A stretch of DNA of 14,157 nt. It comes from a virus. Both the position numbers and the translations under genes were made by a program. The stretch is taken from the IMG/VR virus record IMGVR_UViG_3300050506_000139, positions 1-14,157 of that record; one strand, written 5' to 3'. The notes under the pieces were generated by a model that was not told where the DNA came from, did no database searches, and worked only from the letters and a program-made list of their open reading frames with translations. Every line of letters starts with the position of its first letter. Within the stretch, counting starts at the first letter, position 1. Positions 1-14,157 of this stretch are shown in pieces.

Positions 1-127
1 CCACATGCGAGAGCAAATGCGCCCGAAGAGCGGGGTCACGCGTCGTCCCCCGTCCTTTCGCGCGACAAGTAGGCATGCAGGTCTGCGCGTCGCCAACGGC
101 GGTGGCTGCCGAGCTTCGACGCCAAGC
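1..127. repeat. Terminal direct repeat, copy 1 (identical to 14031-14157)
   Basis: Base-by-base comparison shows ccacatgcgagagcaaatgc...gagcttcgacgccaagc at both window ends, 127/127 identical. Confidence 0.97.
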
Positions 128-317
128 TGGCAAGGCCAGCATCGCGGCGAACCCGGGCTTGGAATGCGAGGACATTGGGGCAGCCGACTTCCCGCGCGGC
201 GTCCGCGTCGGTCAGCAGCGCGGTGCGGCCGGACTCCTCGAGCATCATCCGAAACCGGTCGCTCAGGCGGTTCTCAAACGCGACCAGCTTGGCGTCGAAT
301 TCCTCCTCGGTGATCAT
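36..317 (-). CDS. Excisionase/AlpA-like HTH DNA-binding protein (MerR-superfamily HTH_17-like)
   Basis: The C-terminal LLTDADAAREVGCPNVL...GSHRRWRRADLHAYL fits the excisionase pattern (LT..EaA..lG...., G.r.rW...dl..wL). I prefer the ATG at 317 (MITEEEF), preceded by GGTGAAGG, which also holds the upstream stop. The track ORF extends to 362. Continues by wrap-around into the replication gene. Confidence 0.55.
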   Translation of the reverse strand: MITEEEFDAKLVAFENRLSDRFRMMLEESGRTALLTDADAAREVGCPNVLAFQARVRRDAGLASLASKLGSHRRWRRADLHAYLSRERTGDDA

Positions 318-325
318 GACGACCT

Positions 326-520
326 TCACCGCGGGAGCGCCTCTGGCACGGGCAAACCACACGTACCCAACACTTTCCGGATGCGCTCTGCCAGCAGTGG
401 GCGCACGGGCTGCCCAGACAGCATGCGCTTGACGGTGCGGGGATCCGCGACCGCCATTGCTGCGACCATTCTGATCTCGGTTTCGGTGAGCTCATTGTTC
501 CGCTCGCTCATGTTGTCCAA
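326..520 (-). CDS. Small HTH regulator (DPRTVKR motif)
   Basis: 64-aa ORF with VAAMAVADPRTVKRMLSGQPVRPLLAERIRKVL, an HTH-like helix-turn-recognition helix. TTG at 520, alternative ATG at 511. Tightly packed in the leftward operon. Confidence 0.5.
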   Translation of the reverse strand: MDNMSERNNELTETEIRMVAAMAVADPRTVKRMLSGQPVRPLLAERIRKVLGTCGLPVPEALPR

Positions 521-569
521 GATGAACGAGAGAGCGGGTCAAGTCACTGACACCCGAGCAGAAAATATG

Positions 570-1172
570 TCAGTCTCGGATTTCTCGGATTTCTTTTAGC
601 CAGGCGGCAATCAGATTCTCGGTCAATACCGGACGCGGTGTGATCTTCTTTCCGCCATCAAGCACCCTGCGCACAGTCCGCGGATCTATGCCGAGCTCAT
701 CAGCGATTATCTCAGATGCCTTCCCGAGCGTGAGCCCCTTGGTCTGTCGCGGTTCGTGGCCGGGAGGGTAGCACTTCGGTCGTCGAGGCCGGTTGTCTAC
801 GAGATCGTCGAGCCGGCTATATATGTGTTCCTGTCTTTTTGCGAGCTGCCATGCGTCGCCACGACCGGGCCACAGGCGTTTCCCCTCGGCTCTGACTTCA
901 TTCTCGAGCCGGCGAGTCTCGGACTTGTCCGCGTCCATTTCAAGAAGGTTCGCATCGAAGGCCTGGACCAGTTCCATCAAGCGAGTGGCTTCGTCCCGAA
1001 GAAAGTCACGACACTCTAGAAGCGATGGGAATCGGTTTTTACGTCTGGGCAACTGCTCCGCGTCCTTCCCGCATCGCTTAAGAGAAACCGGGCAGGGCGC
1101 CGAGGACGCGGCGACCGGCGCCCACACAGCGGGGATCAACCACTGCGTTGCCCGACATGGATACTCTACCAT
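570..1172 (-). CDS. Regulatory protein with coiled-coil middle and C-terminal HTH (DPRTVRR motif); start uncertain
   Basis: The C-terminus LGKASEIIADELGIDPRTVRRVLDGGKKITPRP repeats the motif of the next gene. ATG at 1172 has no clear RBS and internal ATGs (for example 977) are possible. First gene of the leftward operon, divergent from 1371 (+). Confidence 0.5.
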   Translation of the reverse strand: MVEYPCRATQWLIPAVWAPVAASSAPCPVSLKRCGKDAEQLPRRKNRFPSLLECRDFLRDEATRLMELVQAFDANLLEMDADKSETRRLENEVRAEGKRLWPGRGDAWQLAKRQEHIYSRLDDLVDNRPRRPKCYPPGHEPRQTKGLTLGKASEIIADELGIDPRTVRRVLDGGKKITPRPVLTENLIAAWLKEIREIRD

Positions 1173-1370
1173 GCAGCTCTGACACGACGTGTGCTAGCCT
1201 GACATCTGCGTTCGCAGAAAACTCCGCGCGGGATCGGCATTGCTGGGGTTTTTGCCCCCTGAACGAGTGCACCTGATTGCGATCCCAGCTGCACGTCGTC
1301 ATCATTCGGCCGGAACTACCCACGGGCCGAGTACATTGATCCATCGACCTAGCACATCTCTGGAGCATAG

Positions 1371-2153
1371 ATGAAGCGATTAACAACGATCCTTCTGTCC
1401 TCGCTCGCCGCTATTTCTACTACCATTGTCGGTCTCAGTCGCGTCGATATTCCAAGAGGATTCTGGGGCGAAAAGAGAGTTCTGATCATCTTAGCGATCG
1501 CGTATCTTGGTATCCACGCTTTCGCGCAGCCGATAGTAAAAGATGTCAAAGAACGCATGACGAGTCGAAGCGTGCGGCGGCGAGAGGACATCACTGAATT
1601 GCTTATTGGGGCGCTTAGCAACATCGCCGACCAAACGGGTCTCGATTGGAGGCAGCTTGGTGTCCACGTTTTTCTCGTCAAAACCAAATGGCGTTGGCCC
1701 TTCCGAAAAGCCTGGTGGCCGCTCCGCAATCCGCGGGAGCAGGTCCAATATCAGGTTTCTCGTTTTAAGATCGCGAGGCATCCGCCGTCATCGGGCATTC
1801 GATGGACAAAGGGCAAGGGCGCCATAGGAGACTGCTGGGAGAAGCAGGTGCCGATCTCAGCAAATCTATACCGGGACTTTGCGCCCTATGCGAAGTTAAC
1901 GGCACAAGAGTGGGACGGGTTGGATCGCGACGTTCGGTATGGGCTGAGCTTTGATGAGTTTCGCAGAGTGAAAGATTACGGAGGGGCAATCGTTGTTACA
2001 CCAATCAAAAAGGCGGACGACACGACCAAGTACATTGGGTGCGTGAGTGCGGATTCGCCCGGCGATTCCTTACAAAGACTCGATAACCCCAGCGTTTTTG
2101 AAGTCCTTCAGGGTGTGGCAAAAACCACCGCCACGCTCTTGTCACGGCGGTAG
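1371..2153 (+). CDS. Membrane protein with two N-terminal TM helices and a GAF-like C-terminal domain; candidate cargo
   Basis: ATG with GGAG 5 nt upstream. Two hydrophobic helices (ILLSSLAAISTTIVGL, VLIILAIAYLGIHAFA). The C-terminal pattern LGVHVFLV...RF...IRWTKGKGAIGDCW...GGAIVVTPI...YIGCVSADS resembles the GAF/GAF_2 core (G.G..G ... vPl ... iGvl..ds). Opposite strand to most genes and more A/T-rich by eye. Confidence 0.6.
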   Translation: MKRLTTILLSSLAAISTTIVGLSRVDIPRGFWGEKRVLIILAIAYLGIHAFAQPIVKDVKERMTSRSVRRREDITELLIGALSNIADQTGLDWRQLGVHVFLVKTKWRWPFRKAWWPLRNPREQVQYQVSRFKIARHPPSSGIRWTKGKGAIGDCWEKQVPISANLYRDFAPYAKLTAQEWDGLDRDVRYGLSFDEFRRVKDYGGAIVVTPIKKADDTTKYIGCVSADSPGDSLQRLDNPSVFEVLQGVAKTTATLLSRR

Positions 2154-2178
2154 GGTATACTTATGAATTAGGTGACGG

Positions 2179-2370
2179 ATGCCTAGCCAAACCAGAAAAC
2201 TGGTCAAGCAGACCGTAGTCACGGAGCAGTTTCTTGAGACGTTGGAGCAACTTCACGTGAGCGAAAAGGTCGTCGAGGCGGCAAAGCGCGCGCTCGAGAG
2301 ACCGTCGACCGACGAGGAAACAAAGCTTCCACCCCGAAGCCACCCGGGGCGGGTACGCCGCTCAACGTAA
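2179..2370 (+). CDS. Small helical hypothetical protein
   Basis: 63-aa ORF 25 nt downstream of the membrane GAF-like gene, on the same strand, with AGGTGA just upstream of the ATG. No recognisable motif. Confidence 0.3.
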   Translation: MPSQTRKLVKQTVVTEQFLETLEQLHVSEKVVEAAKRALERPSTDEETKLPPRSHPGRVRRST

Positions 2371-2536
2371 GATCTCTGCCCGTCCGCTTCCGCTACAACG
2401 GCCATATGGAGCTCGGTATGGTCGGCGCGTCACCTCCGACAATCTCATGTCTGTGTGTTAGGGCGCCTGGCTGAGCGATCCCTTGTGGTCATCGGCGCTT
2501 GTCGGCGACCGAAGACATGACGCAACTCATTGTAAT

Positions 2537-2577
2537 GCTTAGAAGGCCTGTGCTCTATCCAGCTGAGCTACGGGAGC
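2537..2577 (-). other. Truncated tRNA-Arg(UCU): 5' half only (acceptor 5' strand, D-arm, anticodon stem 5' strand and loop); candidate attP identity block
   Basis: The minus strand reads GCTCCCG TA GCTC AGCTGGATA GAGC A CAGGC CTTCTAA GC. This is a canonical acceptor, D stem-loop and anticodon loop with anticodon TCT. Similarity ends 2 nt after the loop. No T-arm or 3' acceptor strand was found downstream. It starts 7 nt after the integrase stop. Confidence 0.75.
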
Positions 2578-2584
2578 AATGTCG

Positions 2585-3886
2585 TCAAACCTTACCTAAT
2601 CGTTCAGCTATCTGCAACGCGACGCCGGCGTCATCCGTGGCCGTGTCGGCTTCCATATGGTGTCTGGTATGGTCGTCGGCCATCTGCTGCCGTCGGGCCT
2701 GGTCCATGCTGGCGATGTCGGCGGGCAGCTTGGGCGCGAAGCTGAGGCGCGCCACCTGCGCCGAGAGGCGCGCGGGCATCGCATGCGCGTAGCGCTCGAC
2801 CTGGCTCATGGACTTCCACCGCCCCAGCTCCCTGAGCTCCACCGGATGCGTCCCCTCGGCTGCCAGGAGCGTTGCGAACGCATGGCGCAAAGCGTGGTTG
2901 TAGTGCTGCGGGACGTGAACGCCGGCCGCTACCAGCAGGTCCTTGACCTTCCGCATATCGTGCGGGTTGACCGCGCGGGCACCCTTCCCGCGCGCCCGCG
3001 GCATCGCGATAACCAACCCGTCTTTCGTCGCCGGGCACTTTTCTCGCCATTGCCGAAGCATCACCACCAGCTCCGGATTAGCCGGCACGGTCTTGACCTC
3101 CTCGTTCTTGGTGGTCGTCGCCCAGGACCGCGCCACGGTGATAAGGCCCCGCTCCAGGTCGCAATCGATCCAGCGTAGACCGCAAATCTCCCCGAGTCGC
3201 AGGCCCAAATACGCGCCGAGGGCAACGGCCGGCTTCAGATAACCGATGCCCATGGTCTCCGCGGTGGCTAGCATCTTCTCGAGCTCCCCGGCCGTGTAGT
3301 AGTCGGGCTTGCCGAGTTGGACCGATGGCCGCTCCACCTCGGCCGTGGGGTTCTCGCACGTGATGATGCCTTCCTTGCGAGCCCAGCGGTACATCCGGGA
3401 GATGACCTTCAAGACGTGAACCACGGTCTGCTTGGAACGCTTCGAAAGGATGTCATCGCGCAGCCGCTCCACATCCTTACGCGTGACATCGCTGGCGAGC
3501 TTCTGGCCGAGGGCCGGCAAGATGTAGTGCGTAAACTTGGAGCGCGCGAAGGCGCGGTATTTCTCCAGGTCTTTGATCCGTGGCCGAGAGTATTCGGCGA
3601 GAAAGCGATCGGCGACCTGATTCACGGTAAGCGCCACAGGCGCAGGCGCAGGCGGCTTCGGCTCTGGTAACCCTTTTCGAATGCGATCGGCTCGGGCCTC
3701 TGCCTCGCGTTCCAGCCGAGCGCCTCCATCCCGGGCTTGCGCCATGCTCTCGATCGCGTGCCCGTCGCCATCGGTGAGTAAAAGCTTGCTGTTTCGGCGC
3801 AGCTCGCCCTGCGCATCGACCTCGAGCAGCCCTTCAGCGTAGTAGCGCCAGCCCTTGCGTGTCTTCCGTCTGAATACGTAGGCCAT
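2585..3886 (-). CDS. int: Tyrosine recombinase / phage integrase
   Basis: Catalytic signature present: R in GLRLGEICGL, HALRHAF (H-x-x-R), GRWKS, and catalytic Tyr in VERYAH. N-terminal SAM-like core-binding region (VNQVADRFLAEY). ATG at 3886 is preceded by AAGGAGG. The track start at 3889 is a TTG one codon upstream. Confidence 0.92.
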   Translation of the reverse strand: MAYVFRRKTRKGWRYYAEGLLEVDAQGELRRNSKLLLTDGDGHAIESMAQARDGGARLEREAEARADRIRKGLPEPKPPAPAPVALTVNQVADRFLAEYSRPRIKDLEKYRAFARSKFTHYILPALGQKLASDVTRKDVERLRDDILSKRSKQTVVHVLKVISRMYRWARKEGIITCENPTAEVERPSVQLGKPDYYTAGELEKMLATAETMGIGYLKPAVALGAYLGLRLGEICGLRWIDCDLERGLITVARSWATTTKNEEVKTVPANPELVVMLRQWREKCPATKDGLVIAMPRARGKGARAVNPHDMRKVKDLLVAAGVHVPQHYNHALRHAFATLLAAEGTHPVELRELGRWKSMSQVERYAHAMPARLSAQVARLSFAPKLPADIASMDQARRQQMADDHTRHHMEADTATDDAGVALQIAERLGKV

Positions 3887-5262
3887 CAATCCTCCTTTTC
3901 TCGGCTACTCAACCCACTGCAGTTGAACCGAGGCGAATGCCTGCCTGAACGAACGCGCCGATGGTGTAGTCGTCGCATTGGAGAGTAAAATCGCCGGCGG
4001 ATCGGAATGTGAATCGTGGGGGTTTGGCTATGGCCGGGATGAGTCGCGGACGGAAGGCATTCAACGTTATCGGCGGCTTGGTGTTGATCGCGATGGCCGT
4101 GGCGGTCGTGGCGATCAGAGAGATGAAACAAGAGCCGGTACCGCGTCCCGCTTCTGTCACTCCGCCCCAAGCCGCTCCGTCCCTTTCCACGACAAATGCA
4201 CCAGGACAGCAGCCTCCCCCTTCTGATCCCAATGCTCCTATAGATACCAAAAACCTGGGCGCCTCGATCGCGCAAGAGTTGAAAAGCCTCAGCGCGACGT
4301 ATGCGAGCGAAGGCCCCCCCGGCAAGTACGCCGACCTGATTGATTCGGGGCTTTCGATCGATACAAGAGCAATTCTGGACGTGGCCGAGAAGGGCGCCGA
4401 GAACGCTCGGACGATTACATACTCCCATTTGAAGAAGGATGCGGACCGTTACGCCGGAAAGCCGTTTGTCTTTAGCGGACCGATCCTTGAAATACAAGAG
4501 GCGAAGGGGCAGCTCGTTGCTCGAATCAACCAAGGAAGCTATAGCGAACGCCCGATCTGGGTGGCAGCCACGTTTAACACCGAATTCATCGACGGGAAAT
4601 ATGTCGACGTGATTGGATACTTGGCAGGTTCTTACAGCTATACATCGCAAGCCGGTTGGAACATAACGATCCCTTCTGTCTTCGCTATAGCAATGACCAA
4701 AAACGGGAATCTCGCCAGGGCCCGAGCGCTCCGAAGCGGAAAGCGCTTGCGGCGCAGCGAAGACGAGGAGTGAAATCACGAAACAGTCCTCCTCTCTCGG
4801 CTCAGCAAACGCCATCTGTTCTGCATTCGAGGCGGCTTCCATGATTTCGTGGACCCGCGCCTGCGATGCCGCGAGGTCGCGTTCGAGGGTGTCTATGCGG
4901 GACCGGTCGGCCTGCGACGCGGCCAGCGCTTCGTGGCACATGTCTTTCAGTTCGGAGACCCGCGCCTTGGTGGTGTTAGCCGCGCGTGCATGGCCCCCTG
5001 CGACATCGACCAGCCGCGCATTCTCTCCCTCCAAGCGCTCGCGGTCCCGCTCCAGCTCGGCGACCCGCGCCGCTAATTGCTCGCATTCGGCTTCGGCGCT
5101 GTTCATTTCGCGTTCGAGCTGGTCACGCCACCGATCGCGTTCGGCGCGGGCCTCATCGCGCTCGCGTTCTAGCTCGGCGACCCGCGCGCGTAGGCGGTCG
5201 ATGATTTCCGCGTCAGCTTTCACGCCGGCAAGGTCGGAGATTCTTTCCTTGTGCCAGCTCAT
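3886..5262 (-). CDS. Coiled-coil protein; only the first 155 or so codons (5262 to about 4800) look coding, and the frame then stays open to 3886
   Basis: ATG at 5262 overlaps the upstream stop (ATGA). The N-terminus is heptad-like with an internal duplication (ARVAELERERDEA / ARVAELERDRERLE). Beyond about 4800 the translation is antisense to 4009-4773 and looks non-protein-like. The first in-frame stop is at 3886-3888, overlapping the int ATG (TGATG). Confidence 0.45.
   Translation of the reverse strand: MSWHKERISDLAGVKADAEIIDRLRARVAELERERDEARAERDRWRDQLEREMNSAEAECEQLAARVAELERDRERLEGENARLVDVAGGHARAANTTKARVSELKDMCHEALAASQADRSRIDTLERDLAASQARVHEIMEAASNAEQMAFAEPREEDCFVISLLVFAAPQALSASERSGPGEIPVFGHCYSEDRRDRYVPTGLRCIAVRTCQVSNHVDIFPVDEFGVKRGCHPDRAFAIASLVDSSNELPLRLLYFKDRSAKDKRLSGVTVRILLQMGVCNRPSVLGALLGHVQNCSCIDRKPRINQVGVLAGGAFARIRRAEAFQLLRDRGAQVFGIYRSIGIRRGRLLSWCICRGKGRSGLGRSDRSGTRYRLLFHLSDRHDRHGHRDQHQAADNVECLPSATHPGHSQTPTIHIPIRRRFYSPMRRLHHRRVRSGRHSPRFNCSGLSSREKED
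4009..4773 (+). CDS. Signal-anchored or secreted protein with Pro-rich linker and globular C-terminal domain; function unknown
   Basis: N-terminal basic stretch plus hydrophobic helix (RGRKAFNVIGGLVLIAMAVAVVAI), a P/S/T/Q-rich linker, then ordinary globular composition rich in K, I, Y, F and N. Start is GTG 4009, ATG 4030 or ATG 4039. The opposite-strand frame here is R/C/H/S-rich junk. Confidence 0.6.
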   Translation: MNRGGLAMAGMSRGRKAFNVIGGLVLIAMAVAVVAIREMKQEPVPRPASVTPPQAAPSLSTTNAPGQQPPPSDPNAPIDTKNLGASIAQELKSLSATYASEGPPGKYADLIDSGLSIDTRAILDVAEKGAENARTITYSHLKKDADRYAGKPFVFSGPILEIQEAKGQLVARINQGSYSERPIWVAATFNTEFIDGKYVDVIGYLAGSYSYTSQAGWNITIPSVFAIAMTKNGNLARARALRSGKRLRRSEDEE

Positions 5263-5594
5263 GCGGCCTCTTTTTCTTCATCTTCCGTGAGCCCCTGATT
5301 GAGCGCTGGGCCGTAGCTTGCCGCACATACCGAATCGATGCGCTCAGCAGCCTCACCAAGAATGAACTCAAGGGCTTCGATTTCGTCTAACCCAAGTGAG
5401 CTTCCACCGGACGACTCGATGGTGCGATAGACCAAGCGGAGATAGTGCGCGACGATAGCGGCATCCTCGTTGATCTTCTCGAACACCTTGCTCATCTGAA
5501 CCGGTTGCGTCCGTGCCTTGCTGCCAACGTTCCTCTTCGCCTTCATGTTCCCCCGTCCTTTCGTTGCGCCCTCGTTTTTCGGCGCCTCTGCCAC
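5259..5594 (-). CDS. Hypothetical protein (basic N-terminus, acidic C-terminus)
   Basis: 111-aa ORF. Start is GTG 5594 or ATG 5546 (MKAKRNV, preceded by AAGGACGGGGGA). Its stop overlaps the next gene's start (ATGA). Confidence 0.55.
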   Translation of the reverse strand: MAEAPKNEGATKGRGNMKAKRNVGSKARTQPVQMSKVFEKINEDAAIVAHYLRLVYRTIESSGGSSLGLDEIEALEFILGEAAERIDSVCAASYGPALNQGLTEDEEKEAA

Positions 5595-5621
5595 CTACGC
5601 GCGCGGCCCCACGCCGCACGC

Positions 5622-6020
5622 TTACAAACCAGCGTCACGCAGACGTGCATTGATCGCCGGGAGTGTCTGCCATGCCGGATCGCAGTGATCGCAATCGTCG
5701 CGCCCCAAGTGGCCGAGATGAGAGTGCATCAACTCGTGTGCATAGGCTGACGCGTCGAAGCTGCCCGGCCAAAAGAGCTCCACGCAATCGCAATGGCTGA
5801 AATAGAGCCCTTGGTACTGGTGGCCGTCCTTAGGGTCCGTGACAAGACCGGCGTCCCATTGCACCAACGGCGCGGGATCCGTTTCGTCCATCATCTGGTT
5901 CCATGTGATGGCCTCGGCCTCGCACTGCCTCGGCTGCCCATGTTCGCAATCGACCGGAGTTCCCGAGGGACCGTAATAGCACCCGCCGACGAACAGGAGA
6001 AGCATGAGCGCTCGCCGCAT
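5622..6020 (-). CDS. Cys-rich lipoprotein with HExxH motif (putative small zinc metallopeptidase-like)
   Basis: From the ATG at 6020 the protein begins MRRALMLLLFVGGC, a signal peptide plus lipobox-like VGGC. The mature part has 8 Cys and AYAHELMHSHLGH. The track ORF starts upstream at 6128. Confidence 0.6.
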   Translation of the reverse strand: MRRALMLLLFVGGCYYGPSGTPVDCEHGQPRQCEAEAITWNQMMDETDPAPLVQWDAGLVTDPKDGHQYQGLYFSHCDCVELFWPGSFDASAYAHELMHSHLGHLGRDDCDHCDPAWQTLPAINARLRDAGL

Positions 6021-6202
6021 CAGGCCACCAACCGCGCCAACGTGGAACAGCACCGAGTGCAGTTGCGCAACTCTGCCGCCGCTTCGCCATCGATTGCCTG
6101 CATCCCCACGTAAGGCAGTGCCTGCCATGCGACCTCATCGATCTTCAGCGCCTCATGCGTTTCACGCGAACACATCAGATACACCTCTCCCTTTGCGGCC
6201 AT
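6020..6202 (-). CDS. Small hypothetical protein
   Basis: 60-aa ORF with ATG at 6202. Its stop overlaps the lipoprotein ATG (TGATG). Weak RBS and no motif. Confidence 0.3.
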   Translation of the reverse strand: MAAKGEVYLMCSRETHEALKIDEVAWQALPYVGMQAIDGEAAAELRNCTRCCSTLARLVA

Positions 6203-6237
6203 AGGCCGCGCCTGCGAACGTTCCTCTTGAGCGCTTA

Positions 6238-6402
6238 CTACCGCTGGACTTTCTTACTTTCCTGATTGGCCAGCCAGTCGAGCAGCGCGACGCGCACGAT
6301 ATCCGCACGCGAAATCTTCAGGCCGGGGCGCTCCGCCGCCATGCGTTCGGCCGCCTTATCGAGCTTTGCGACGAGCCCCGTGTCGAGCCTAATGTGAAGC
6401 AT
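6238..6402 (-). CDS. Ribbon-helix-helix (CopG/Arc/MetJ-like) DNA-binding protein
   Basis: From the ATG at 6402 (GAGGAGGAAAAG upstream) the protein is MLHIRLDTGLVAKLDKAAERMAAERPGLKISRADIVRVALLDWL. This is a beta-strand followed by two helices, typical of RHH. The track ORF extends to 6462. Confidence 0.7.
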   Translation of the reverse strand: MLHIRLDTGLVAKLDKAAERMAAERPGLKISRADIVRVALLDWLANQESKKVQR

Positions 6403-6433
6403 CTTTTCCTCCTCGATAACCATGCGAGCGATT

Positions 6434-6575
6434 CGATACAAGAACGATACCAACACGTCCACTCTTGGGTGTACGCAGGGTTACGCGCGCGACCTGGGGC
6501 AATACCCGGGTATCGTTTGCAACACCTGTTGTATCGGTTGCCACACCGACTGTTACGGCCGATACACGGGTATCG
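6434..6575. promoter_or_regulatory. Operator or iteron array of CGATAC/GTATCG hexamers between the TerL stop and the RHH gene
   Basis: CGATAC at 6434 and 6445 (11-bp spacing). 16-bp palindromes CAATACccggGTATCG (6500-6515) and CGATACacggGTATCG (6560-6575). 18-bp direct repeats GTATCGtTTGCaACACC / GTATCGgTTGCcACACC at 6510 and 6531 (21-bp spacing). Confidence 0.55.
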
Positions 6576-6594
6576 TCTGACCCACCGGCCCGCA

Positions 6595-8022
6595 TCACAC
6601 CCGCTGCCGTATCACGCCGAATGGGCCGGCGCGCCGCATGATGGTTCTGTTCTGGAAGCGCTGTGGCGTAACGGGCTTATGTCGCACCGTCTCGACGAGG
6701 CAATAGCGAAGGCTATCCAAGGCGTGCGATGGGATCCGCTCGTCGATTTCTTCGCGATAGAGGCCCGTGCGCTTGTCGAAGAGCCACGAAGCAGCCTTGA
6801 TCTCGCGAATGAGATTCGTGCAGGCGTCGAGGATGCGCAGGCGCGGACCGTCGGGTCCCGGGTGCAGCCAGGTTTGGATATGCGTTAGGCCCGGCTTGAT
6901 CGACTTGTCGGTGCCGCGCGCATTCAGTCCACGTCGGCAAAATGCATCGATGACATCTGGCCGGGCGGAATCGACCACGACCGTGTTAGCCTGCCATCCA
7001 TTCGCCAGCTCGCGGATCACGGTCGCCCATGTTCGTCCGTGTTCATCGCCAAATGAATGTAGATGCGCCTCGTACACTTCTTCGGTGACGAGCAATTCAT
7101 CACCGAAATCGAGCAGAACGATCGCAGCGCCAGGCTGCGCATAGCCGACGTCGTGACCAATCGCAGCAGCCTTCGCCATGCTTCGGAGCGACCGGCCGCT
7201 CAGAGAGATTCCGTAACGAAGCTTCGCTTCCCTCTCTGTGATGACATGGATTTCGTCGTCAAACTCATCCAGAACGCGCGAACTCGACGGCGCTTCCCAG
7301 TTGGCGAGCCATAGCCGACGAAAGGACCGCTCGGGCAGTGTCTCCTGGGCGGCTTCGATCTCAGTCGTCTGGATGACGGGATTCGCACTCGTTGGCCAGC
7401 CGAATGAAGCGTAATCGGGATGGTACGAAGAATCATCCGGCATCCCGCGCCGCACCAGCTCGCTATAGGTCCAGTGCGTAGGATTGTCGGGCGTCGTAGT
7501 GAAGAGCGCGAAGCTATGCGGCGCCCAGTCGGCGAGCCTGGCGCGCAAAACTTCATTCCACAGTCCCGGCTCCGTGCCTGGTGTCGTCAACTCGTCGACG
7601 AACACTCCATGCAAGCGGAGACCGCGCAACCGTTCGCCGCCGTCTTCGCCCGAGCGAAACGAGACGAGCACATCGCCTTTGAGCCAAAGATCCTGCTCGT
7701 GACGGTTCCAGCTTTCGACGAGAGCATCTCCGGCCGCTTCGAAGGTTAGCCGCCGTGGCTCTGAGAGCATGCCGAACGTCGGCGTGCAAACGAGCAGATG
7801 AACCGCCGGCCTCCGATCCTTGCCGATGCCGGCCACCTGGTTGACGTGGCCCTGCGCGCGCAGTTCGTAGCCGCGCTGCAGAAGTGCCGTGACGGCTGCG
7901 CGCGTCTTGCCGCTTCGGTTGCCGGCCGAAGCCGTGACGAACCGCTTACGGCACTGCATGAATTCTGCCTGCGCAGGATGCGGTGTAAAATCATTGGCTG
8001 GTATTCGAATGCTGACTGTCAA
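6595..8022 (-). CDS. terL: Terminase large subunit
   Basis: Q-motif HPAQAEF, Walker A GNRSGKT, Walker B LHGVFVDE and coupling motif FTTTP. Nuclease-domain acidic motifs IGHDVGY, VVVDSARP and SHALDSLRYC. The Q-motif lies upstream of the first ATG, so the TTG at 8022 is the likely start; it overlaps the upstream stop as TTGA. Confidence 0.9.
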   Translation of the reverse strand: MTVSIRIPANDFTPHPAQAEFMQCRKRFVTASAGNRSGKTRAAVTALLQRGYELRAQGHVNQVAGIGKDRRPAVHLLVCTPTFGMLSEPRRLTFEAAGDALVESWNRHEQDLWLKGDVLVSFRSGEDGGERLRGLRLHGVFVDELTTPGTEPGLWNEVLRARLADWAPHSFALFTTTPDNPTHWTYSELVRRGMPDDSSYHPDYASFGWPTSANPVIQTTEIEAAQETLPERSFRRLWLANWEAPSSSRVLDEFDDEIHVITEREAKLRYGISLSGRSLRSMAKAAAIGHDVGYAQPGAAIVLLDFGDELLVTEEVYEAHLHSFGDEHGRTWATVIRELANGWQANTVVVDSARPDVIDAFCRRGLNARGTDKSIKPGLTHIQTWLHPGPDGPRLRILDACTNLIREIKAASWLFDKRTGLYREEIDERIPSHALDSLRYCLVETVRHKPVTPQRFQNRTIMRRAGPFGVIRQRV

Positions 8023-8222
8023 TGCAAATCAGGCTCCAGCGCGTGCTCCACGTCGTCGAGTAGCCGCACGCAGGTGCGCTGCATTTCCTTGACACAGCCC
8101 GCCAATGCAATGAGCGCTTGCCGATCGCGTTTCTCGAGCGCATCGAGAAACCGAGGGTTTCGTAGGCTCGCCACATGTCCTGCGGCCATCCTGGCGTAAT
8201 CGTGCAAATGCGATAAGAGCAT
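8019..8222 (-). CDS. Small helical hypothetical protein
   Basis: 67-aa ORF with ATG at 8222, 2 nt after the Gly-rich gene's stop. Its own stop overlaps the TerL start. Confidence 0.5.
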   Translation of the reverse strand: MLLSHLHDYARMAAGHVASLRNPRFLDALEKRDRQALIALAGCVKEMQRTCVRLLDDVEHALEPDLH

Positions 8223-8224
8223 CT

Positions 8225-9193
8225 CTAGCTTCCCAGCAATTGCACGATCGTGCCCGCAGACCCGGACGCTCCGTTGGTGCCGCCATTGGTTCCTGTGCCA
8301 CCCGCACCACCGCTAACGGTTGGGGCCGTACCGATCGCCGAGCTCATGGTTGTGAGCAAGATTCCACCACCACCGCCACCACCACCGCCACCGCTGCTGC
8401 TATTGCTGCCCGTGCCAGCGCCATTACCGCCGGCACCGCCGTTTGCGGTGATAGAACCGGAATTCGAAATCTGTACTGCAGCGATGACTATGATGCCACC
8501 GCCTGCCCCGCCTCCGCCACCTTCACCACCGGTACCACCCCCGAAAACAGCTCCGCCACCCCCACCGCCAGATCCGCCCTTTAGACTTACCAATGCAGAT
8601 GCGCCAACGATAGCGCCCAGCGTTGCCATTGGATTCGCTCGGTATCCTCCGGCGCTGGCAGAAGGGGCAGTTGCCGCTCCGCCTGCACCTCCGGTATCTG
8701 GTGCACCGATTGCGGAGTCGCCTCCGTTCCCACCAACGCCACCGATCTGATTAGATCCCCCGGCGCCGCCGGACGCTCCGGCTCCGGTTCCATTTGATCC
8801 CGCACCGCCTGCCGATCCTGAAAGTAACGACCCAGCCGCACCCGCAGTGCCACCAGCGCCGCCGTTGGATCCTGCTACTGCGTTGGCCCCGGCATTACCT
8901 GCAACTGAGATGATCCCACCAGATGCAATCGAGAGTAGTTGGGATACGTAGATGCGGAAACCGGCCGGCTTTAGTACACCTGTGCTACTGATTGTAAGAT
9001 TGCGGTAATACATATCCCGCGTGAGGGTCGTCGTTCCACCGGTGATAGTGACGTCGCCGTCGCTGCCATCACCAAATATGCCGCTTCCGCCGATCAAGCC
9101 GTTAATATCGTCTTGAACGGTTTGTCCCCATGTTGGCGTGAAAACAGTTCCGTTAAGCCAGGTAGCGGGCGAAGTAATCTTTCCGATCGCCAT
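8225..9193 (-). CDS. Glycine-rich beta-helix-like protein, putative fibre / receptor-binding protein
   Basis: The N-terminus reads FGDGSDGDVTITGGTTTLTRDMYYRNLTISSTGVLKPAGFRIYV. It is followed by long G/A/S/N/T repeats (GGAGG, GNGG) and a run of 10 Gly. This resembles phage fibre-like glycine-rich proteins from memory. The plus-strand Pro-rich ORF 8250-8750 is its mirror. Confidence 0.6.
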   Translation of the reverse strand: MAIGKITSPATWLNGTVFTPTWGQTVQDDINGLIGGSGIFGDGSDGDVTITGGTTTLTRDMYYRNLTISSTGVLKPAGFRIYVSQLLSIASGGIISVAGNAGANAVAGSNGGAGGTAGAAGSLLSGSAGGAGSNGTGAGASGGAGGSNQIGGVGGNGGDSAIGAPDTGGAGGAATAPSASAGGYRANPMATLGAIVGASALVSLKGGSGGGGGGAVFGGGTGGEGGGGGAGGGIIVIAAVQISNSGSITANGGAGGNGAGTGSNSSSGGGGGGGGGGILLTTMSSAIGTAPTVSGGAGGTGTNGGTNGASGSAGTIVQLLGS

Positions 9194-9195
9194 AG

Positions 9196-9384
9196 TTAAA
9201 TGCTCTCCAAATCCGCTAGCGTCGCGCGCATGCTCTCGATGTCGTGAATCAACGCTTCAAGCGCCGAGTCAACTTCGCCGATCAGCGGGCGCGGATCGCT
9301 CTGCAAGATACAATCAAGCTCCGCCAGACGATCAGCCGCCTGGCGGAGATGTGCTACCAGCGTGCGCGTGATGCTGACGCTCAA
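9196..9384 (-). CDS. Small helical hypothetical protein
   Basis: 62-aa ORF. TTG start overlaps the upstream stop (TTGA), and it ends 2 nt before the Gly-rich gene's ATG. Confidence 0.45.
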   Translation of the reverse strand: MSVSITRTLVAHLRQAADRLAELDCILQSDPRPLIGEVDSALEALIHDIESMRATLADLESI

Positions 9385-9614
9385 TCGCGGTTCCTCGGCG
9401 GCAAATCGGCGTTCGCGTCTTTAATCATCTGTTCTTGCTCGGCCTGTCCCGTCCTGCGCCCACCGCCGGCAGGCGTACGAAATGCATCATTGCCCAGGTT
9501 TCCGGCGCGCCGCTCCTTGCGCATACCGCCCACTAGGCCAGTATCGCTCTGTTCGCCGGTCGCCTTTTCGTCGCGGGCCTTTTGACTCTGTGAATGAAAG
9601 TTGCTTTTACCCAT
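9381..9614 (-). CDS. Small basic, probably disordered protein
   Basis: 77-aa ORF with ATG at 9614 preceded by GAGGAA. Rich in K, R, G, Q and E with no hydrophobic core. Confidence 0.5.
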   Translation of the reverse strand: MGKSNFHSQSQKARDEKATGEQSDTGLVGGMRKERRAGNLGNDAFRTPAGGGRRTGQAEQEQMIKDANADLPPRNRD

Positions 9615-9626
9615 AGGTTCTATTCC

Positions 9627-10115
9627 TCATTCCGTGATAGTTGATTCCGCGAGCCGCTGAATTGCTGCTCGCCAATTCGGTCCACGTTGATTGTTGATGA
9701 GCTCTCGCAAGCGCTCAAATACGGTCGCGAGCGGGTTGCCCTCTTGTTTCAGCTCGTGAGCCAGGAGCAGGATGGCGCGTCCGACATCGGAGTCGAGGCT
9801 CACGTCGGCGATGAACCGTTGCTGATTCTCGTGACGCTGTTGGGCGCGTTCGGTTCCGAGCGCCATTTCGGAAAGCATCGCGGCTTCTTGATGTCGCTCC
9901 TCGAGCGAAGCGAGATCCTTCTTTCGCTGTAGCTGCTCGAGCGTGGCGCGCTCTGCGTCGGTGAATATGGTAGCCGCCGTCGGTTCGTCGTCTGGCAAAC
10001 GACGTGTCTCTAGCGGCTCCGCGGTTCGAGAGGCGCGTTCCTCGGCAAGTGCAGCATTGACGTCGATCGGCCGGTTCTCTTCTGGAAACCAGCTGCTCTG
10101 GTACGGGAACGCCAT
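9627..10115 (-). CDS. Hypothetical protein (acidic, helical)
   Basis: 162-aa ORF. Its ATG is immediately adjacent to the upstream stop (TAAATG). Protein-like composition. Confidence 0.6.
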   Translation of the reverse strand: MAFPYQSSWFPEENRPIDVNAALAEERASRTAEPLETRRLPDDEPTAATIFTDAERATLEQLQRKKDLASLEERHQEAAMLSEMALGTERAQQRHENQQRFIADVSLDSDVGRAILLLAHELKQEGNPLATVFERLRELINNQRGPNWRAAIQRLAESTITE

Positions 10116-10421
10116 TTACTTGCTCGCCTTCTTCGCGGCTTCGCGCTCAGCGTATTCCGCCTCGGTCAACAGGCTCGGGCAGGCGTTGCGCACCGACCAG
10201 GGCGAGATACCGGTGCCGAGTTCGGCATCGAAGGGAATCTCGACCCATTCATTCTTGGCGACCGACTTTTTGACGCCTTCGAAGTTCAGGATGCAAGTGC
10301 CGGGCGGATAGCCACGGGGTAAAAGCTCGCGGGTCTGTTCGACGATCTTGCGCACTTTCTTGACGTCATCGTAAAAATAGTCGGCCCAAAGATACATTCC
10401 GCTGTTGAAATACTTCGGCAT
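10116..10421 (-). CDS. Hypothetical protein
   Basis: 101-aa ORF with ATG at 10421 preceded by ACGGAGGAAAAATAAC. Aromatic-rich, globular-looking sequence. Confidence 0.65.
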   Translation of the reverse strand: MPKYFNSGMYLWADYFYDDVKKVRKIVEQTRELLPRGYPPGTCILNFEGVKKSVAKNEWVEIPFDAELGTGISPWSVRNACPSLLTEAEYAEREAAKKASK

Positions 10422-10460
10422 GTTATTTTTCCTCCGTGTTAAGTGGTGTTCGGTTACGAG

Positions 10461-10766
10461 TCATTTGCTCTTCCTTCTGTCGCGAATCTCCCGGATCACG
10501 TCGCCAACCATTTCGGCCAGCCGCTCATGGGCCGTACCCTTTCGATCGAGCGCAGCACCTGCAATCGCGTCCAATCGATTGGCCGGCTGGCGTTCGGCCG
10601 GCGCAGGTTCGGCCGGTGCATTTTTCTTGGCCTCGAGCTCGGCGCGTTGGGCGGGCGAAAGCTGCGCCTTGAGCAATTCGGCTTTCAAGCGGGCTGCCTT
10701 GGCCGAGTGTTCTTCGGCGGCAATTTCCGCCTCTTGCAGGCGTCGGAAAACGTTATCGTCACTCAC
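10461..10766 (-). CDS. Coiled-coil hypothetical protein; first gene after the leader and terminator
   Basis: I prefer the in-frame GTG at 10766 (GAGGA 7 nt upstream). The track's TTG start at 10796 lies inside the U-tract of the upstream hairpin. Ala/Glu/Lys-rich helical sequence. Confidence 0.55.
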   Translation of the reverse strand: MSDDNVFRRLQEAEIAAEEHSAKAARLKAELLKAQLSPAQRAELEAKKNAPAEPAPAERQPANRLDAIAGAALDRKGTAHERLAEMVGDVIREIRDRRKSK

Positions 10767-10794
10767 GCGCACATCCTCGCTTTCGGTTGGTTGC

Positions 10795-10838
10795 AAAAAA
10801 ACGCTCTGCTAGTCCGCATTCTGTCGAGTGGGCAGAGC
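10795..10838 (-). terminator. Hairpin plus U7 tract (intrinsic-terminator-like) on the minus strand
   Basis: The minus strand reads GCTCTGC-(22 nt)-GCAGAGC-G-TTTTTTT. The loop is large, so this is tentative. It is preceded by a 9-bp-stem hairpin at 10843-10871 (ACACCGCAA/TTGCGGTGT). Confidence 0.4.
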
Positions 10839-11189
10839 AGCCACACCGCAAAGGAGGCGCCGTTGCGGTGTCGGCGCCGGGCCGCGGACCTTGGCCCTGA
10901 CAAATGAAAGAAATGCCCGCTGCCCATGTCTCTGCGGTCGGCGGGCGCAACCGGGCCGGGTCGGCACATGGGCGGCCGATGAATCATGGTCGGCTTCTCC
11001 ACCGGCCGCGAGTGCGTGTGAGGATATCGACCGACCGGGGCTTCCCGAGGTCACGCCACCGTCCACCTAGAAAGGCAATTTTAAGGTCGGCTTTGGCGTC
11101 TGACCCGCCGGGGCGGGCAGAACCACGGGAGACGGAATTGCACCCTCTAGATTCCGCGATCTGCTCGTGCAAAACGCATTTCTCAGCGG

Positions 11190-11660
11190 TCATATTTGGG
11201 CCTGCCTATGGCGTCGAAGTCCTGCCAGGCGCGCTGCCTTCTGTTCAGGAGTAAGCCGGTCCCAGTTGCGGGCTGGCTTCGGCGCGGGAGCGCTAGACGC
11301 TGCCGCCGTGGTGCCGCCTTTCCGTGTGACCTCGAGCTCTGCGCCCTCGCAGGCGCGGCACAGAATCACGTAACGCCATTCCTGCACGCCTTCGGGCAGG
11401 TGGTACAGAACGGCCGGCGCGCATGAATCGCGGCCGATGCCAAACCGGCTCGAGCAATGGAAGCATCGATCGGCTTGGTCATGGAGCTGTGCGAGTAGCG
11501 GCTTGTAGGTGTGGTCCGCGTTGCAGTAGCCACGGCTCTCGAGCGCAAGCAGCTCCCGCTTCCAGGGATTGACGCAGCATTGCGTGAAGCCGTCGATTAG
11601 AAAGGCTCTGTGCCCGCATTCGGGACAATTGGCATGTTTCAGCGGTTCGGTCTGTCTCAC
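11190..11660 (-). CDS. Cys-rich zinc-finger protein (possible degenerate HNH-like or Q-like regulator)
   Basis: CPECGH, CFHC and LCRAC pairs are present. YHLPEG....LCRAC loosely resembles an HNH beta-beta-alpha-metal core. I prefer the GTG at 11660 (AGGGAG 8 nt upstream), overlapping the upstream stop as GTGA. The track ORF extends to 11816 in a frame overlapping the previous gene. Confidence 0.5.
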   Translation of the reverse strand: MRQTEPLKHANCPECGHRAFLIDGFTQCCVNPWKRELLALESRGYCNADHTYKPLLAQLHDQADRCFHCSSRFGIGRDSCAPAVLYHLPEGVQEWRYVILCRACEGAELEVTRKGGTTAAASSAPAPKPARNWDRLTPEQKAARLAGLRRHRQAQI

Positions 11661-11839
11661 CTCGAAGGCTCCCTCTCGGGCCATAGCTGAAACGGGACGG
11701 CCAGCGGCGGTCGCGAGGGCTCCTTCGCGGCCTGTGATGCGGCATGCTGCTCTTGGCACTCCGCCGAGCAGTACACGTGAAGGCCACCGGGGATGGTGCC
11801 GCCGCACCAGATGCACTGTGTCTCTTTGTCGTCGCTCAC
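11657..11839 (-). CDS. Small zinc-ribbon protein (zf-FCS/TRASH-like CxxC-x12-CxxxC)
   Basis: GTG at 11839 is preceded by GAGGAGGAACCGAA and overlaps the upstream stop (GTGA). Motif CIWCGGTIPGGLHVYCSAEC. Confidence 0.55.
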   Translation of the reverse strand: MSDDKETQCIWCGGTIPGGLHVYCSAECQEQHAASQAAKEPSRPPLAVPFQLWPEREPSR

Positions 11840-12441
11840 TTCGGTTCCTCCTCGTGTTCGGGTAATGCGTACATTTTCAGCCCCAGCTCGGGCCGCTCGG
11901 TCACCACGGCCAACCGCAGCGAACCATCGGACGCCTCGAGGTAGACGCGGCCATCGCTGCCCTGCCAGCCCTCGAGCGCCGCACCGGTTGCGCCACGCAG
12001 CGAGACCCGCTGCATGCCGCCACTCGAGACCTGCGCGATTTGGATCAACGTGGGCTGTGGCGTGCTTGCCGCGGCTGCTTCGGCATTCATACGCCTTTCG
12101 CGTACCTTGCTGCGGCTATCGAGAAGGTGAGCCACGCGGGCAGAGATGTAATCCAGTCCCTTGCGCACGTTCTCGTCGCCCAGCGGATCGGGGTGGTCGC
12201 GCATTACACGCTGCGCTTTGGCGATCTCAAGCGCCGCCTGGCTAGTCAAAACGTTCTCGTCGCCGTAGTTAAGCCGTAGCAGCCTGTTATTACCCGTATA
12301 ATTACCAAGGTCTTCGCCGCGTAACTGCTTCGAATACAGGCCAGTCTTGAGAGCGTTCAAATTGCCGCGAGGAGCGCCACCGCGGCCTCGTCGTTTGGGG
12401 GGCTGGCGTCGCGTTGTTTTTGGCGTTTCACCGGCACTCAT
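11836..12441 (-). CDS. Basic N-terminus protein with GAPRGNLNALKTGLYS motif; possible small-terminase-like DNA-binding protein
   Basis: 201-aa ORF with ATG at 12441 and GCGAGG upstream. From memory, the motif G-A-P-x-G-N-x-N-A-x-K-x-G-x-Y-S occurs in YjcR-type and small-terminase-like phage proteins. Not verified. Confidence 0.6.
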   Translation of the reverse strand: MSAGETPKTTRRQPPKRRGRGGAPRGNLNALKTGLYSKQLRGEDLGNYTGNNRLLRLNYGDENVLTSQAALEIAKAQRVMRDHPDPLGDENVRKGLDYISARVAHLLDSRSKVRERRMNAEAAAASTPQPTLIQIAQVSSGGMQRVSLRGATGAALEGWQGSDGRVYLEASDGSLRLAVVTERPELGLKMYALPEHEEEPK

Positions 12442-12526
12442 GCTGCCTCGCTGTTTGCATTCCCGTCCATACCGGCGTCCATACAGAACCCGTTAACCAT
12501 GCGAACTCTTTGGAATAGCACAGGCC

Positions 12527-12556
12527 TATATAGCCTCTGTGCAATCGCGCTGCTAA
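12527..12556 (-). promoter_or_regulatory. Candidate sigma70-like promoter (TTAGCA-18 nt-TATATA) upstream of 12441
   Basis: The minus strand reads TTAGCA (12556-12551), an 18-nt spacer, then TATATA (12532-12527). It sits in the most A/T-rich stretch of the 12442-12634 intergenic region. Confidence 0.3.
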
Positions 12557-12605
12557 TAATTGCGCATAGTTGCGTTTGTTTGGCGCTACTTTCGATGGCG
12601 CGCGT

Positions 12606-12629
12606 GAGGCAGGCGACGAGGCAGGCGAC
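12606..12629. repeat. Tandem 12-mer x2 (GAGGCAGGCGAC)
   Basis: Read directly from the sequence: 12606-12617 equals 12618-12629. Located 5 nt from the DnaC-like stop codon. Confidence 0.9.
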
Positions 12630-12634
12630 AACCA

Positions 12635-13423
12635 TCATCGCCCACCACCACGCAGGCTATTGCCGCTGACCACGTAGAACCGACCGCCATCTTTGAGCCG
12701 ATCCAGAATCCGCACGCCATAGCGGGTTTTGAACTCGGTCAACGTGCAGTTGGTCGTCAAGATCGTCTTGCGGCCGTCGGCGTAACGGGCATTGACCACA
12801 CCATCGAGCAGCGAGGAGAACGCGCCACCGCGGTCGTTGAACTCGGTCCCAACGTCATCGACGATGAGTAGGCTACAGCGCTCAATCTTGGCCATGGCTT
12901 CATCATCGAAACGGGGATAGCGAGCCAGCTGGGGCGCAGTGAGGAACACCACGACCGACGATGCTTTCGCAAAGACGTTGCTCTGTTTCAGGGACTCAAG
13001 TGCGCGTTGGCGAAGAAGCTGATAAACAGCGGTCGCGCATGCGCTGGTCTTGGCCAAGCCTTTGTTGCCAGCGAGAACCAAAAGCCAATCAGAGCCAGCG
13101 ATGAAGTCACGCGCTACCCGATGTGCTTCGGCGTCGCATTTACCGCCAAGGACCTGATCGACAAATCGGCGAGGCAGATCGCTGGATTTAAACCGGAGCT
13201 CGGCCCGTTCCAACGCATCACGCCGGTCTTCTTCTTCGCAAAGCCGCTTCTGCTGCGCCTGATAGCGTTCGAGCTGGGCTGCGAAGTCGGGATCGGCTTC
13301 TATTCGGGTAAGAATGTCCTTGTAGGTTAGACCAACGCTGGGGTCAGCCAATGTGGTCGTGACAGTGTCGCTAAGATTAGTCATCGATTGCCTGTTCCCC
13401 TGCGGGTCCGTAATCACGGTCAT
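12635..13423 (-). CDS. DnaC/IstB-like AAA+ ATPase (helicase-loader-like) with atypical Walker A
   Basis: Walker A-like GNKGLAKT has Ala where the GKT glycine is expected. Walker B LLIVDDVG, sensor-1 TILTTN and RILDRL are present. Alternative ATG at 13384 would overlap the upstream stop by 8 nt instead of 47. Confidence 0.8.
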   Translation of the reverse strand: MTVITDPQGNRQSMTNLSDTVTTTLADPSVGLTYKDILTRIEADPDFAAQLERYQAQQKRLCEEEDRRDALERAELRFKSSDLPRRFVDQVLGGKCDAEAHRVARDFIAGSDWLLVLAGNKGLAKTSACATAVYQLLRQRALESLKQSNVFAKASSVVVFLTAPQLARYPRFDDEAMAKIERCSLLIVDDVGTEFNDRGGAFSSLLDGVVNARYADGRKTILTTNCTLTEFKTRYGVRILDRLKDGGRFYVVSGNSLRGGGR

Positions 13424-14036
13424 CGGTGAGTTTCAGGGCGCCAACGCCGGATCCATTCGTACTCTTGATCTTGTTAGTGCTCGTGCTCGTGATCGTGCTC
13501 GTGATCGTGGCGCTACTTGAAGCCGTTTTGGCAACGGTGGTTGGCAACGACGGTTGGCAATCAGGGTTGGCAACCCGCTTGGCGTCCGCGATGGCGTCCG
13601 CGAAGATCTCATGGAAGATTGCCCGCAGGTCGCGATGCGCACCTCTGGTCAGTTTCTTGGCCTTGAACGTTGCCATGAACTTGTCTGCGGCTAGCAGGGC
13701 TTCGCTGCGGAGACGACAATCCGGCAGCTCGTCGTAGACCTCGCGCCAGAGCTGAATTGTCTTCGGGCTGGTAGGTGCGTTGTCCGCCATCGCCTCCGGT
13801 AGCCACACCAGCGGCGCGGACCAGTCCGCCTTGACGAATCCCGCGCGCTCCAGCTCACCGAAGCATTGCAAAAACGCGCCGAGGTCCCATGCAAGCGATT
13901 CCGCCAAACCGGCGCGGCCAGCGGAGAACAATCCAGGCAGCGCTCGGCGATGAGGACCGGTCAGCAAGTACAAATGAAGCAGCCGTGCATTGGGCGCGGG
14001 CGCCGGGAGGGACCGAAAACGCCGGTCCTGCCACAT
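13377..14036 (-). CDS. Replication-organiser-like (winged-helix) protein with S/T-rich linker; start uncertain
   Basis: From the ATG at 14036 the protein begins MWQDRRFRSLPAPAPNARLLHLYLLTGPHR...PGLF. This resembles the N-terminal pattern of phage replication-organiser / DnaD-like proteins, and it sits directly upstream of the DnaC-like gene. The track start (TTG 14126) would overlap the wrapped Xis-like gene. Confidence 0.45.
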   Translation of the reverse strand: MWQDRRFRSLPAPAPNARLLHLYLLTGPHRRALPGLFSAGRAGLAESLAWDLGAFLQCFGELERAGFVKADWSAPLVWLPEAMADNAPTSPKTIQLWREVYDELPDCRLRSEALLAADKFMATFKAKKLTRGAHRDLRAIFHEIFADAIADAKRVANPDCQPSLPTTVAKTASSSATITSTITSTSTNKIKSTNGSGVGALKLTDDRDYGPAGEQAIDD

Positions 14037-14157
14037 GCGAGAGCAAATGCGCCCGAAGAGCGGGGTCACGCGTCGTCCCCCGTCCTTTCGCGCGACAAGT
14101 AGGCATGCAGGTCTGCGCGTCGCCAACGGCGGTGGCTGCCGAGCTTCGACGCCAAGC
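14031..14157. repeat. Terminal direct repeat, copy 2 (identical to 1-127)
   Basis: Same comparison as copy 1. An exact end overlap is the usual signature of a circular contig from a de Bruijn assembler; true terminal redundancy is the alternative. Confidence 0.97.

Follow-up and report, generated by a model that had tools for sequence, protein, structure and literature searches.

The 14,157-nt stretch of viral DNA analysed here (the window; positions 1 to 14,157 of IMG/VR record IMGVR_UViG_3300050506_000139) carries on its minus strand an open reading frame (ORF) of 458 codons, stop-free throughout (5262-3886). Among these 458 codons only the first 160 or so are gene-like. They encode a phage coiled-coil protein; the remainder runs antisense to a plus-strand gene and ends on the start codon of the integrase gene int. 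Judged from sequence comparison, this tail appears to be a shadow ORF in frame −1, probably left behind when a cassette carrying the plus-strand gene entered the 3' end of the coiled-coil gene. The features of the locus are as follows:

4786-5262, minus strand: phage coiled-coil gene, about 159 codons, ATGA-coupled to the upstream 95-aa gene
3886-4785, minus strand: read-through tail of 299 codons, the in-register antisense of the plus-strand gene plus spacer, ending with the TGA at 3888-3886
4030-4773, plus strand: TcdC-like gene, encoding a hydrophobic helix (about 4060-4116), a Pro-rich linker, a helix, and a C-terminal OB fold (about 4411-4701)
3889-4029, no strand assigned: spacer separating the int start from the divergent start of the plus-strand gene, presumed promoter region of the latter
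4784-4802, minus strand (read 4802-4784): upstream repeat copy, AGCCGAGAGAGGAGGACTG, then T (no stop)
4793-4777, minus strand: a Shine-Dalgarno (SD)-like AGGAGG within the upstream copy together with, 8 nt on, an in-frame GTG at 4779
3887-3906, minus strand (read 3906-3887): downstream repeat copy, AGCCGAGAAAAGGAGGATTG, then ATG; int ribosome-binding site (RBS) and TGATG stop/start overlap
2585-3886, minus strand: int, phage-type tyrosine integrase of 433 aa (PF00589 and PF22022 above cut-off; phrog_1, E 1e-54)
5259-5546, minus strand: 95-aa gene upstream of the coiled-coil gene, its stop overlapping the coiled-coil ATG

The geometry had been described in the first-pass annotation, and a check of the coordinates bore it out. 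At its start the minus ORF shares ATGA (5262-5259) with the stop of the 95-aa gene; at its end the TGA (3888-3886) runs into the int ATG (3886-3884) to give TGATG. The int ATG is preceded by AAGGAGG at 3897-3891, an SD-ATG distance of only 4 nt. A plus-strand ORF at 4009-4773 lies wholly within the minus ORF in exact codon register (both boundaries at position 1 modulo 3). The annotation was right that this ORF is protein-like and in antisense register, but its start needs revision: GTG 4009 is a less probable start than ATG 4030 (247 aa, with GGGGG 7 nt before it) or 4039.

The two parts of the minus ORF differ in codon score and predicted structure. Codons 1-159 have a GC content at third positions (GC3) of 0.67-0.80 and a codon score of 0.38 bits/codon. 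The predicted structure is one long confident helix over residues 3-151, with pLDDT (predicted local distance difference test) scores mostly of 85-98, in keeping with the convincing coiled coil reported earlier for the first 155 codons or so. There is one clear homologue of this part, P0013 (48% over 109 aa), found in a different context. P0013 closes with an ordinary stop at 237 aa, about 40 residues past the aligned part, versus 24 residues to the junction here. The nearest Atlas clusters are hypothetical proteins of 98-134 aa, the top two from phages. Matches to proteins of the SMC, TPR, and type IV secretion system types were set aside as generic coiled-coil similarity, far below cut-off. 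Within the coiled-coil gene, at 4843-5188, a 19-nt repeat occurs in four copies spaced 105, 105, and 117 nt apart (ARVAELE-like units); this repeat-bearing part is 88% identical, as DNA, to locus L007.

The tail, by contrast, has a junk-like composition. The earlier description of it as rich in R, C, H, and S was accurate: R makes up 14.7%, S 9.0%, H 5.0%, and C 4.0% of its residues, versus 9.8%, 5.4%, 2.3%, and 1.3% in the element's genes. Its codon score (−0.02) is in the same range as those of the antisense frames of the element's other genes, and the spacer (3889-4029) scores as noncoding in both frames. Searches of NCBIfam gave no match for the tail, and Pfam and PHROG searches of the minus ORF gave nothing past residue 149. 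The only tblastn match of the tail is the antisense of a plus-gene homologue. Predicted pLDDT is below 50 throughout, although this is a single-sequence fold and weak evidence alone.

The first-pass annotation had raised the possibility of a frameshift or assembly error near 4780-4800 that removed a stop. This is extremely improbable. The region is 100% identical in the JGI assembly and two ENA assemblies (three contigs with DNA), and gene calls on five contigs (JGI, ENA, and Logan) give the same 458-aa protein. Outside the region one ENA copy has a 12-nt indel, which shows that these are not plain duplicates. The assemblies may nevertheless share samples, and the support comes from assembled contigs.

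Homologues of the plus-strand protein indicate which frame has been selected. In this register, plus codon position 3 is minus codon position 1. The comparison covered a 96-codon core and the three closest homologues with DNA; these show identities at plus positions 1, 2, and 3 of 0.68, 0.81, and 0.39; 0.67, 0.66, and 0.23; and 0.68, 0.73, and 0.32. Of the codons that differ, 33 of 70, 34 of 80, and 37 of 74 are synonymous when read in the plus frame; the corresponding figures for the minus frame are 8 of 70, 3 of 80, and 8 of 74. Over the 16 homologues as a whole, substitutions are likewise synonymous in the plus rather than the minus frame. Antisense stops occur in 14 of the 16, and the two open frames belong to genes with GC3 of 0.89 and 0.75. 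(Locus L016, whose frame is truncated, was excluded from the selection analysis; L019 is a near-duplicate of L021.) With identities of 35-57%, the homologues test family history rather than recent selection in this element. The plus gene is under purifying selection and the minus frame is without long-term selection. This is the outcome of the check on codon-position conservation in both strands that had been suggested at the outset.

The same comparison bears on the idea of young overprinting, in which the tail would have a protein function of its own, either as a C-terminal domain or as a separate protein of about 297 aa initiated at GTG 4779. Long translated frame −1 overlapping genes under selection do exist in Pseudomonas aeruginosa (PMC8850804), and gene callers picked the minus ORF here. 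However, substitutions are mostly non-synonymous in the minus frame, which is closed in most homologues; codon and amino-acid scores are antisense-like; and the tail shows neither a family match nor a confident fold. Purifying selection in the second frame, the mark of a functional overlapping gene, was not found at the family level. Overprinting is thus very improbable.

How did a real gene come to be fused to a shadow? An imperfect direct repeat of about 20 nt flanks an 897-bp cassette, its two copies lying 897 nt apart. In the ORF frame the repeat ends in Glu-Asp-Cys upstream and Glu-Asp-stop downstream: the upstream copy breaks within the stop codon (TG/T, versus TG/A-TG at int). Searched against the element on either strand, the int RBS region finds its best match elsewhere in this upstream copy, 10 nt past the plus-gene stop. 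Shuffling gives the repeat a P of 0.002-0.004 in 50-100-nt windows and 0.014-0.017 in 150-nt windows. The GC content of the cassette is 0.56, versus 0.66 and 0.64 for the flanking genes. The plus gene runs against the two operon genes on either side of it, which share one orientation; distant int relatives lack this arrangement. Three related integrases read in context (51%, 38%, and 33% identity) have small co-oriented genes directly upstream, at gaps of 3, 65, and 2 nt; in none of these three contexts is there a divergent gene upstream of int.

These features suggest the following history. The ancestral coiled-coil gene, of about 160 codons, would have been the last-but-one gene of a minus-strand operon and would have ended on the int start (TGATG). 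An 897-bp cassette with the TcdC-like gene would then have entered that junction in the opposite orientation, so that about 20 nt of the int ribosome-binding region came to lie on either side. With the upstream junction falling between the G and the A of the stop codon, the coiled-coil frame would have lost its stop. It would then have remained open by chance as far as the downstream copy, whose stop is the original one. In this reading the plus gene would be a functional passenger (a moron), the tail a non-functional shadow, and any delivery of ribosomes to int incidental. Both the insertion and the ancestral stop on the int start are what we infer from the sequence, and the explanation as a whole, a junk tail over an inserted plus gene, is probably correct. 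Insertion of the plus gene with a junk tail had been among the first proposals; selection on the plus frame and the repeat broken inside a stop codon now argue for it.

The repeat might instead be coincidental. The tail would still be junk, but the plus gene would be an older resident, and near 4780-4800 the coiled-coil gene would have lost its stop, whether through a point change, a small deletion, or the exchange of a module. The statistical case for the repeat does weaken, to a P of about 0.015, in the wider windows; Glu-Glu codons produce AGGAGG elsewhere in the element; and in other phages TcdC-like genes are long-standing neighbours of int. Yet in those phages the family is co-oriented with int, whereas here it is divergent, and this account has to treat the repeat, and the stopping of the frame precisely on the int ATG, as two separate coincidences. 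This explanation is unlikely.

The plus-gene 3' end and the upstream repeat copy also form an inverted repeat (4760-4800). In RNA from the minus strand this would take the SD-like AGGAGG ahead of GTG 4779 into a paired stem; no U-run follows.

Could a frame of this length be open by chance? Stops in frame −1 require plus-strand TTA, CTA, or TCA codons (PMC3454372), and the scarcity of these codons in GC-rich genes would keep the frame open. The 247 plus codons contain none, versus about 4 expected from the element's codon usage (P 0.007-0.02). Among unrelated, non-redundant genes of the fetched loci, open antisense frames number 0 of 62 at GC3 below 0.5, 3 of 29 at 0.58-0.70, and 13 of 26 above 0.8; the middle class is the one comparable to the plus gene, and its three are equally open. 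(An earlier estimate of 24 of 64 was discarded, as it included redundant loci and counted shadows as genes.) A fully open antisense frame of such length thus occurs in about 1-10% of comparable genes, and the openness of the tail is only modestly beyond chance. We infer that it arose by chance.

A plus-gene homologue at L001:57-1000 (GC3 0.89) likewise has an in-register antisense frame open for more than 300 codons, beside a convergent helix-turn-helix gene. It is an independent chance shadow.

The first-pass annotation had also proposed that the frame is kept open so that translation of int is coupled to it. Selection would hold 299 codons open across a 0.9-kb antisense insert, acting on the absence of stops only, with the sequence of the tail peptide irrelevant; ribosomes would thereby avoid polarity and re-initiate at int (TGATG). 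Several observations are compatible with such a bridge: the missing TTA, CTA, and TCA codons; termination exactly on the int ATG, with the int SD only 4 nt from it; the SD-GTG at 4793-4777, a second in-frame entry; and partial pairing of the int RBS in one of two predicted folds. On the other hand, the three matched genes with equally open frames lack any such context; the L001 homologue, too, has a long open antisense frame; int has a strong SD of its own, unpaired in the longer predicted fold; and the TGATG ending follows from the duplication with a probability of 1/3. Ending on the int ATG would follow from insertion and duplication without selection. A continuous operon mRNA would bring ribosomes to the int ATG, selected or not. 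Positive evidence that the frame is kept for coupling was not found, and the bridge is improbable.

Several points weigh against the insertion history. Opening of the gene (0.007-0.1), of the 47-codon spacer (an extra factor of about 0.16), and the right phase (1/3) give a joint chance per insertion of about 0.0004-0.005. So low a value is tolerable only in a case drawn from a very large scan for oddities; filtering out insertions with stops would not raise the share of open frames among events. As for the repeat, it is short, its copies differ by 2 mismatches and 1 indel, part of it is a Shine-Dalgarno motif, and it was picked out post hoc; an unrelated exact 15-mer also precedes two other start codons in the element. 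No empty-site relative was found in single IMG/VR queries with the coiled-coil gene, the plus gene, and int, and alignments of int against IMG/VR and metagenomes gave only integrases 20-36% identical. An exact pattern for the predicted empty junction had no match in metagenome contigs, a weak negative, being limited to exact matches. Finally, homologues as distant as those compared leave room for a very recent minus-frame function here, which may exist.

The identity of the passenger is clearer. The plus protein has 12 protein homologues, with identity up to 57%, and matches phrog_26645 (E 3e-14); its relatives occur in bacterial genomes and viral contigs. The N-terminal anchor reaches a Kyte-Doolittle 19-residue mean of 2.6 at residues 18-36, within a modelled helix at 15-39. 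AlphaFold models the C-terminal region as a five-strand beta-barrel (pLDDT >85), for which Foldseek returns OB domains of SSB, RPA, and tRNA-synthetase. Among its structural neighbours in the Atlas are clusters labelled 'putative toxin regulator' and 'TcdA-E operon negative regulator' (template-modelling score <0.5 by query, and so a lead only). A PDB sequence search gave nothing significant.

Profile comparison connects this protein to ORF22 of phage A2 and a protein of Leuconostoc phiMH1, reported as TcdC homologues between cI and int (PMC3575817); the phage family also includes a protein of Lrm1. By hhalign, the plus-gene family profile matches Lactobacillus phage A2 ORF22 with 98.3% probability; sequence identity is 27% over 98 aa. 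In pairwise searches, profile A1 finds A2 ORF22 at E 2.5e-23 and the phiMH1 'putative negative regulator' at E 6e-21. Further TcdC homologues are reported on insertional elements (PMC3575817). An integrase follows the plus-gene homologue in A2, phiMH1, Listeria phage LWP01, and a Clostridia genome; on other contigs, family members stand singly against the local gene direction. By these sequence criteria the TcdC-like phage family gains a new member in the plus gene. The TcdC OB domain is extracellular (bioRxiv 10.1101/872283). By analogy with that topology the plus protein is probably surface-exposed, and a surface role, possibly in exclusion or lysogenic conversion, is our own suggestion.

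In phage A2 (L112:1856-2624) the annotation has a co-oriented 'putative excisionase' that shares 140 nt with the TcdC-like ORF22, and phage J-1 is annotated likewise. The A2 'xis' gene was considered as a precedent for antisense overlap and rejected, both genes being on one strand.

The whole record is a closed circle of 14,030 bp with an exact 127-nt terminal repeat (1-127 = 14031-14157), and its minus strand holds nearly all genes. Family searches matched a tyrosine integrase, the large subunit of a terminase, and replication proteins of DnaD-like and DnaC-like type. The element proteins scanned included no capsid or portal protein, and from its gene content the element appears satellite-like. 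An integron reading (intI with a divergent cassette) was rejected: TIGR02249 scores int at 18 bits, versus a cut-off of 265. Pfam, PHROG, and NCBIfam searches gave no family match for the 95-aa gene. A scan for the sigma-70 consensus found no promoter in the spacer, and no terminator was found after the plus gene, a weak test given that the host promoter type may differ.

The 15-mer mentioned above, CGAAAGGACGGGGGA, is found in identical form at 5549-5563 and 14076-14090 (= 46-60) on the minus strand, stopping 2 nt short of the 95-aa gene's ATG and 6 nt short of the GTG that starts a replication gene. It is a possible start-associated or recombination boundary sequence; an RBS-containing 15-mer before two unrelated starts recalls start-associated sequences (PMC3203893). 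At the Thr/Ser-rich end of the replication gene, 12 nt (13481-13492) are absent in frame in one ENA assembly (L006), giving a protein of 226 instead of 230 aa, either a variant or an assembler collapse.

The locus resembles several known systems. Like other frame −1 shadow ORFs (PMC3454372; AntiFam, PMC9710616), the tail lies exactly antisense to a real gene and runs a long way without a stop, in a frame that only TTA, CTA, or TCA can close; it is of a class that scales with GC3, junk in composition, and accepted by gene callers. Unlike them, it is fused in frame behind a real gene, and so would probably be translated if the operon mRNA is continuous. With the phage proteins of A2, Lrm1, and phiMH1 the plus protein shares the hydrophobic anchor, the helix, the C-terminal OB fold, and the position next to int. 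Those genes, however, lie between cI and int and are co-oriented; this one is divergent from int and stands against the operon. It also belongs to a GC-rich subfamily with the motif YTSQAGWNITIP, and there is no toxin locus nearby. An opposite-strand gene nested in a phage operon, with GC below its flanks, recalls morons and noncontiguous operons such as ith-1/tha-1 of Staphylococcus aureus phage 80alpha (PMC11087260, PMC11034616). In the described cases no upstream gene was reported to read through the antisense gene, and here the sigma-70 promoter scan and the terminator search were negative. Finally, olg1 and olg2 of P. aeruginosa (PMC8850804) are antisense frame −1 genes of similar length (957 and 1536 nt, versus 897 nt here), but they are backed by Ribo-seq, mass-spectrometry, and selection evidence, whereas the selection test here was negative.

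An insertion can thus fuse a real gene to a shadow frame and yield a convincing but false 458-aa protein by an ordinary accident. A collection of 15 billion proteins (JGI, ENA, and Logan calls) contains the 458-aa chimera, and the plus protein is absent from it under starts 4009, 4030, and 4039; the ESM Atlas contains the plus protein from residue 11. What is new here is the flanking repeat with its upstream copy broken inside a stop codon; otherwise the biology is ordinary. The TcdC-like OB-fold phage family, described from Firmicutes, is extended to a GC-rich 14-kb element and to a new orientation relative to int. Should the ribosome bridge be true after all, it would represent selection on the openness of a frame alone, and a route by which overlapping genes begin.

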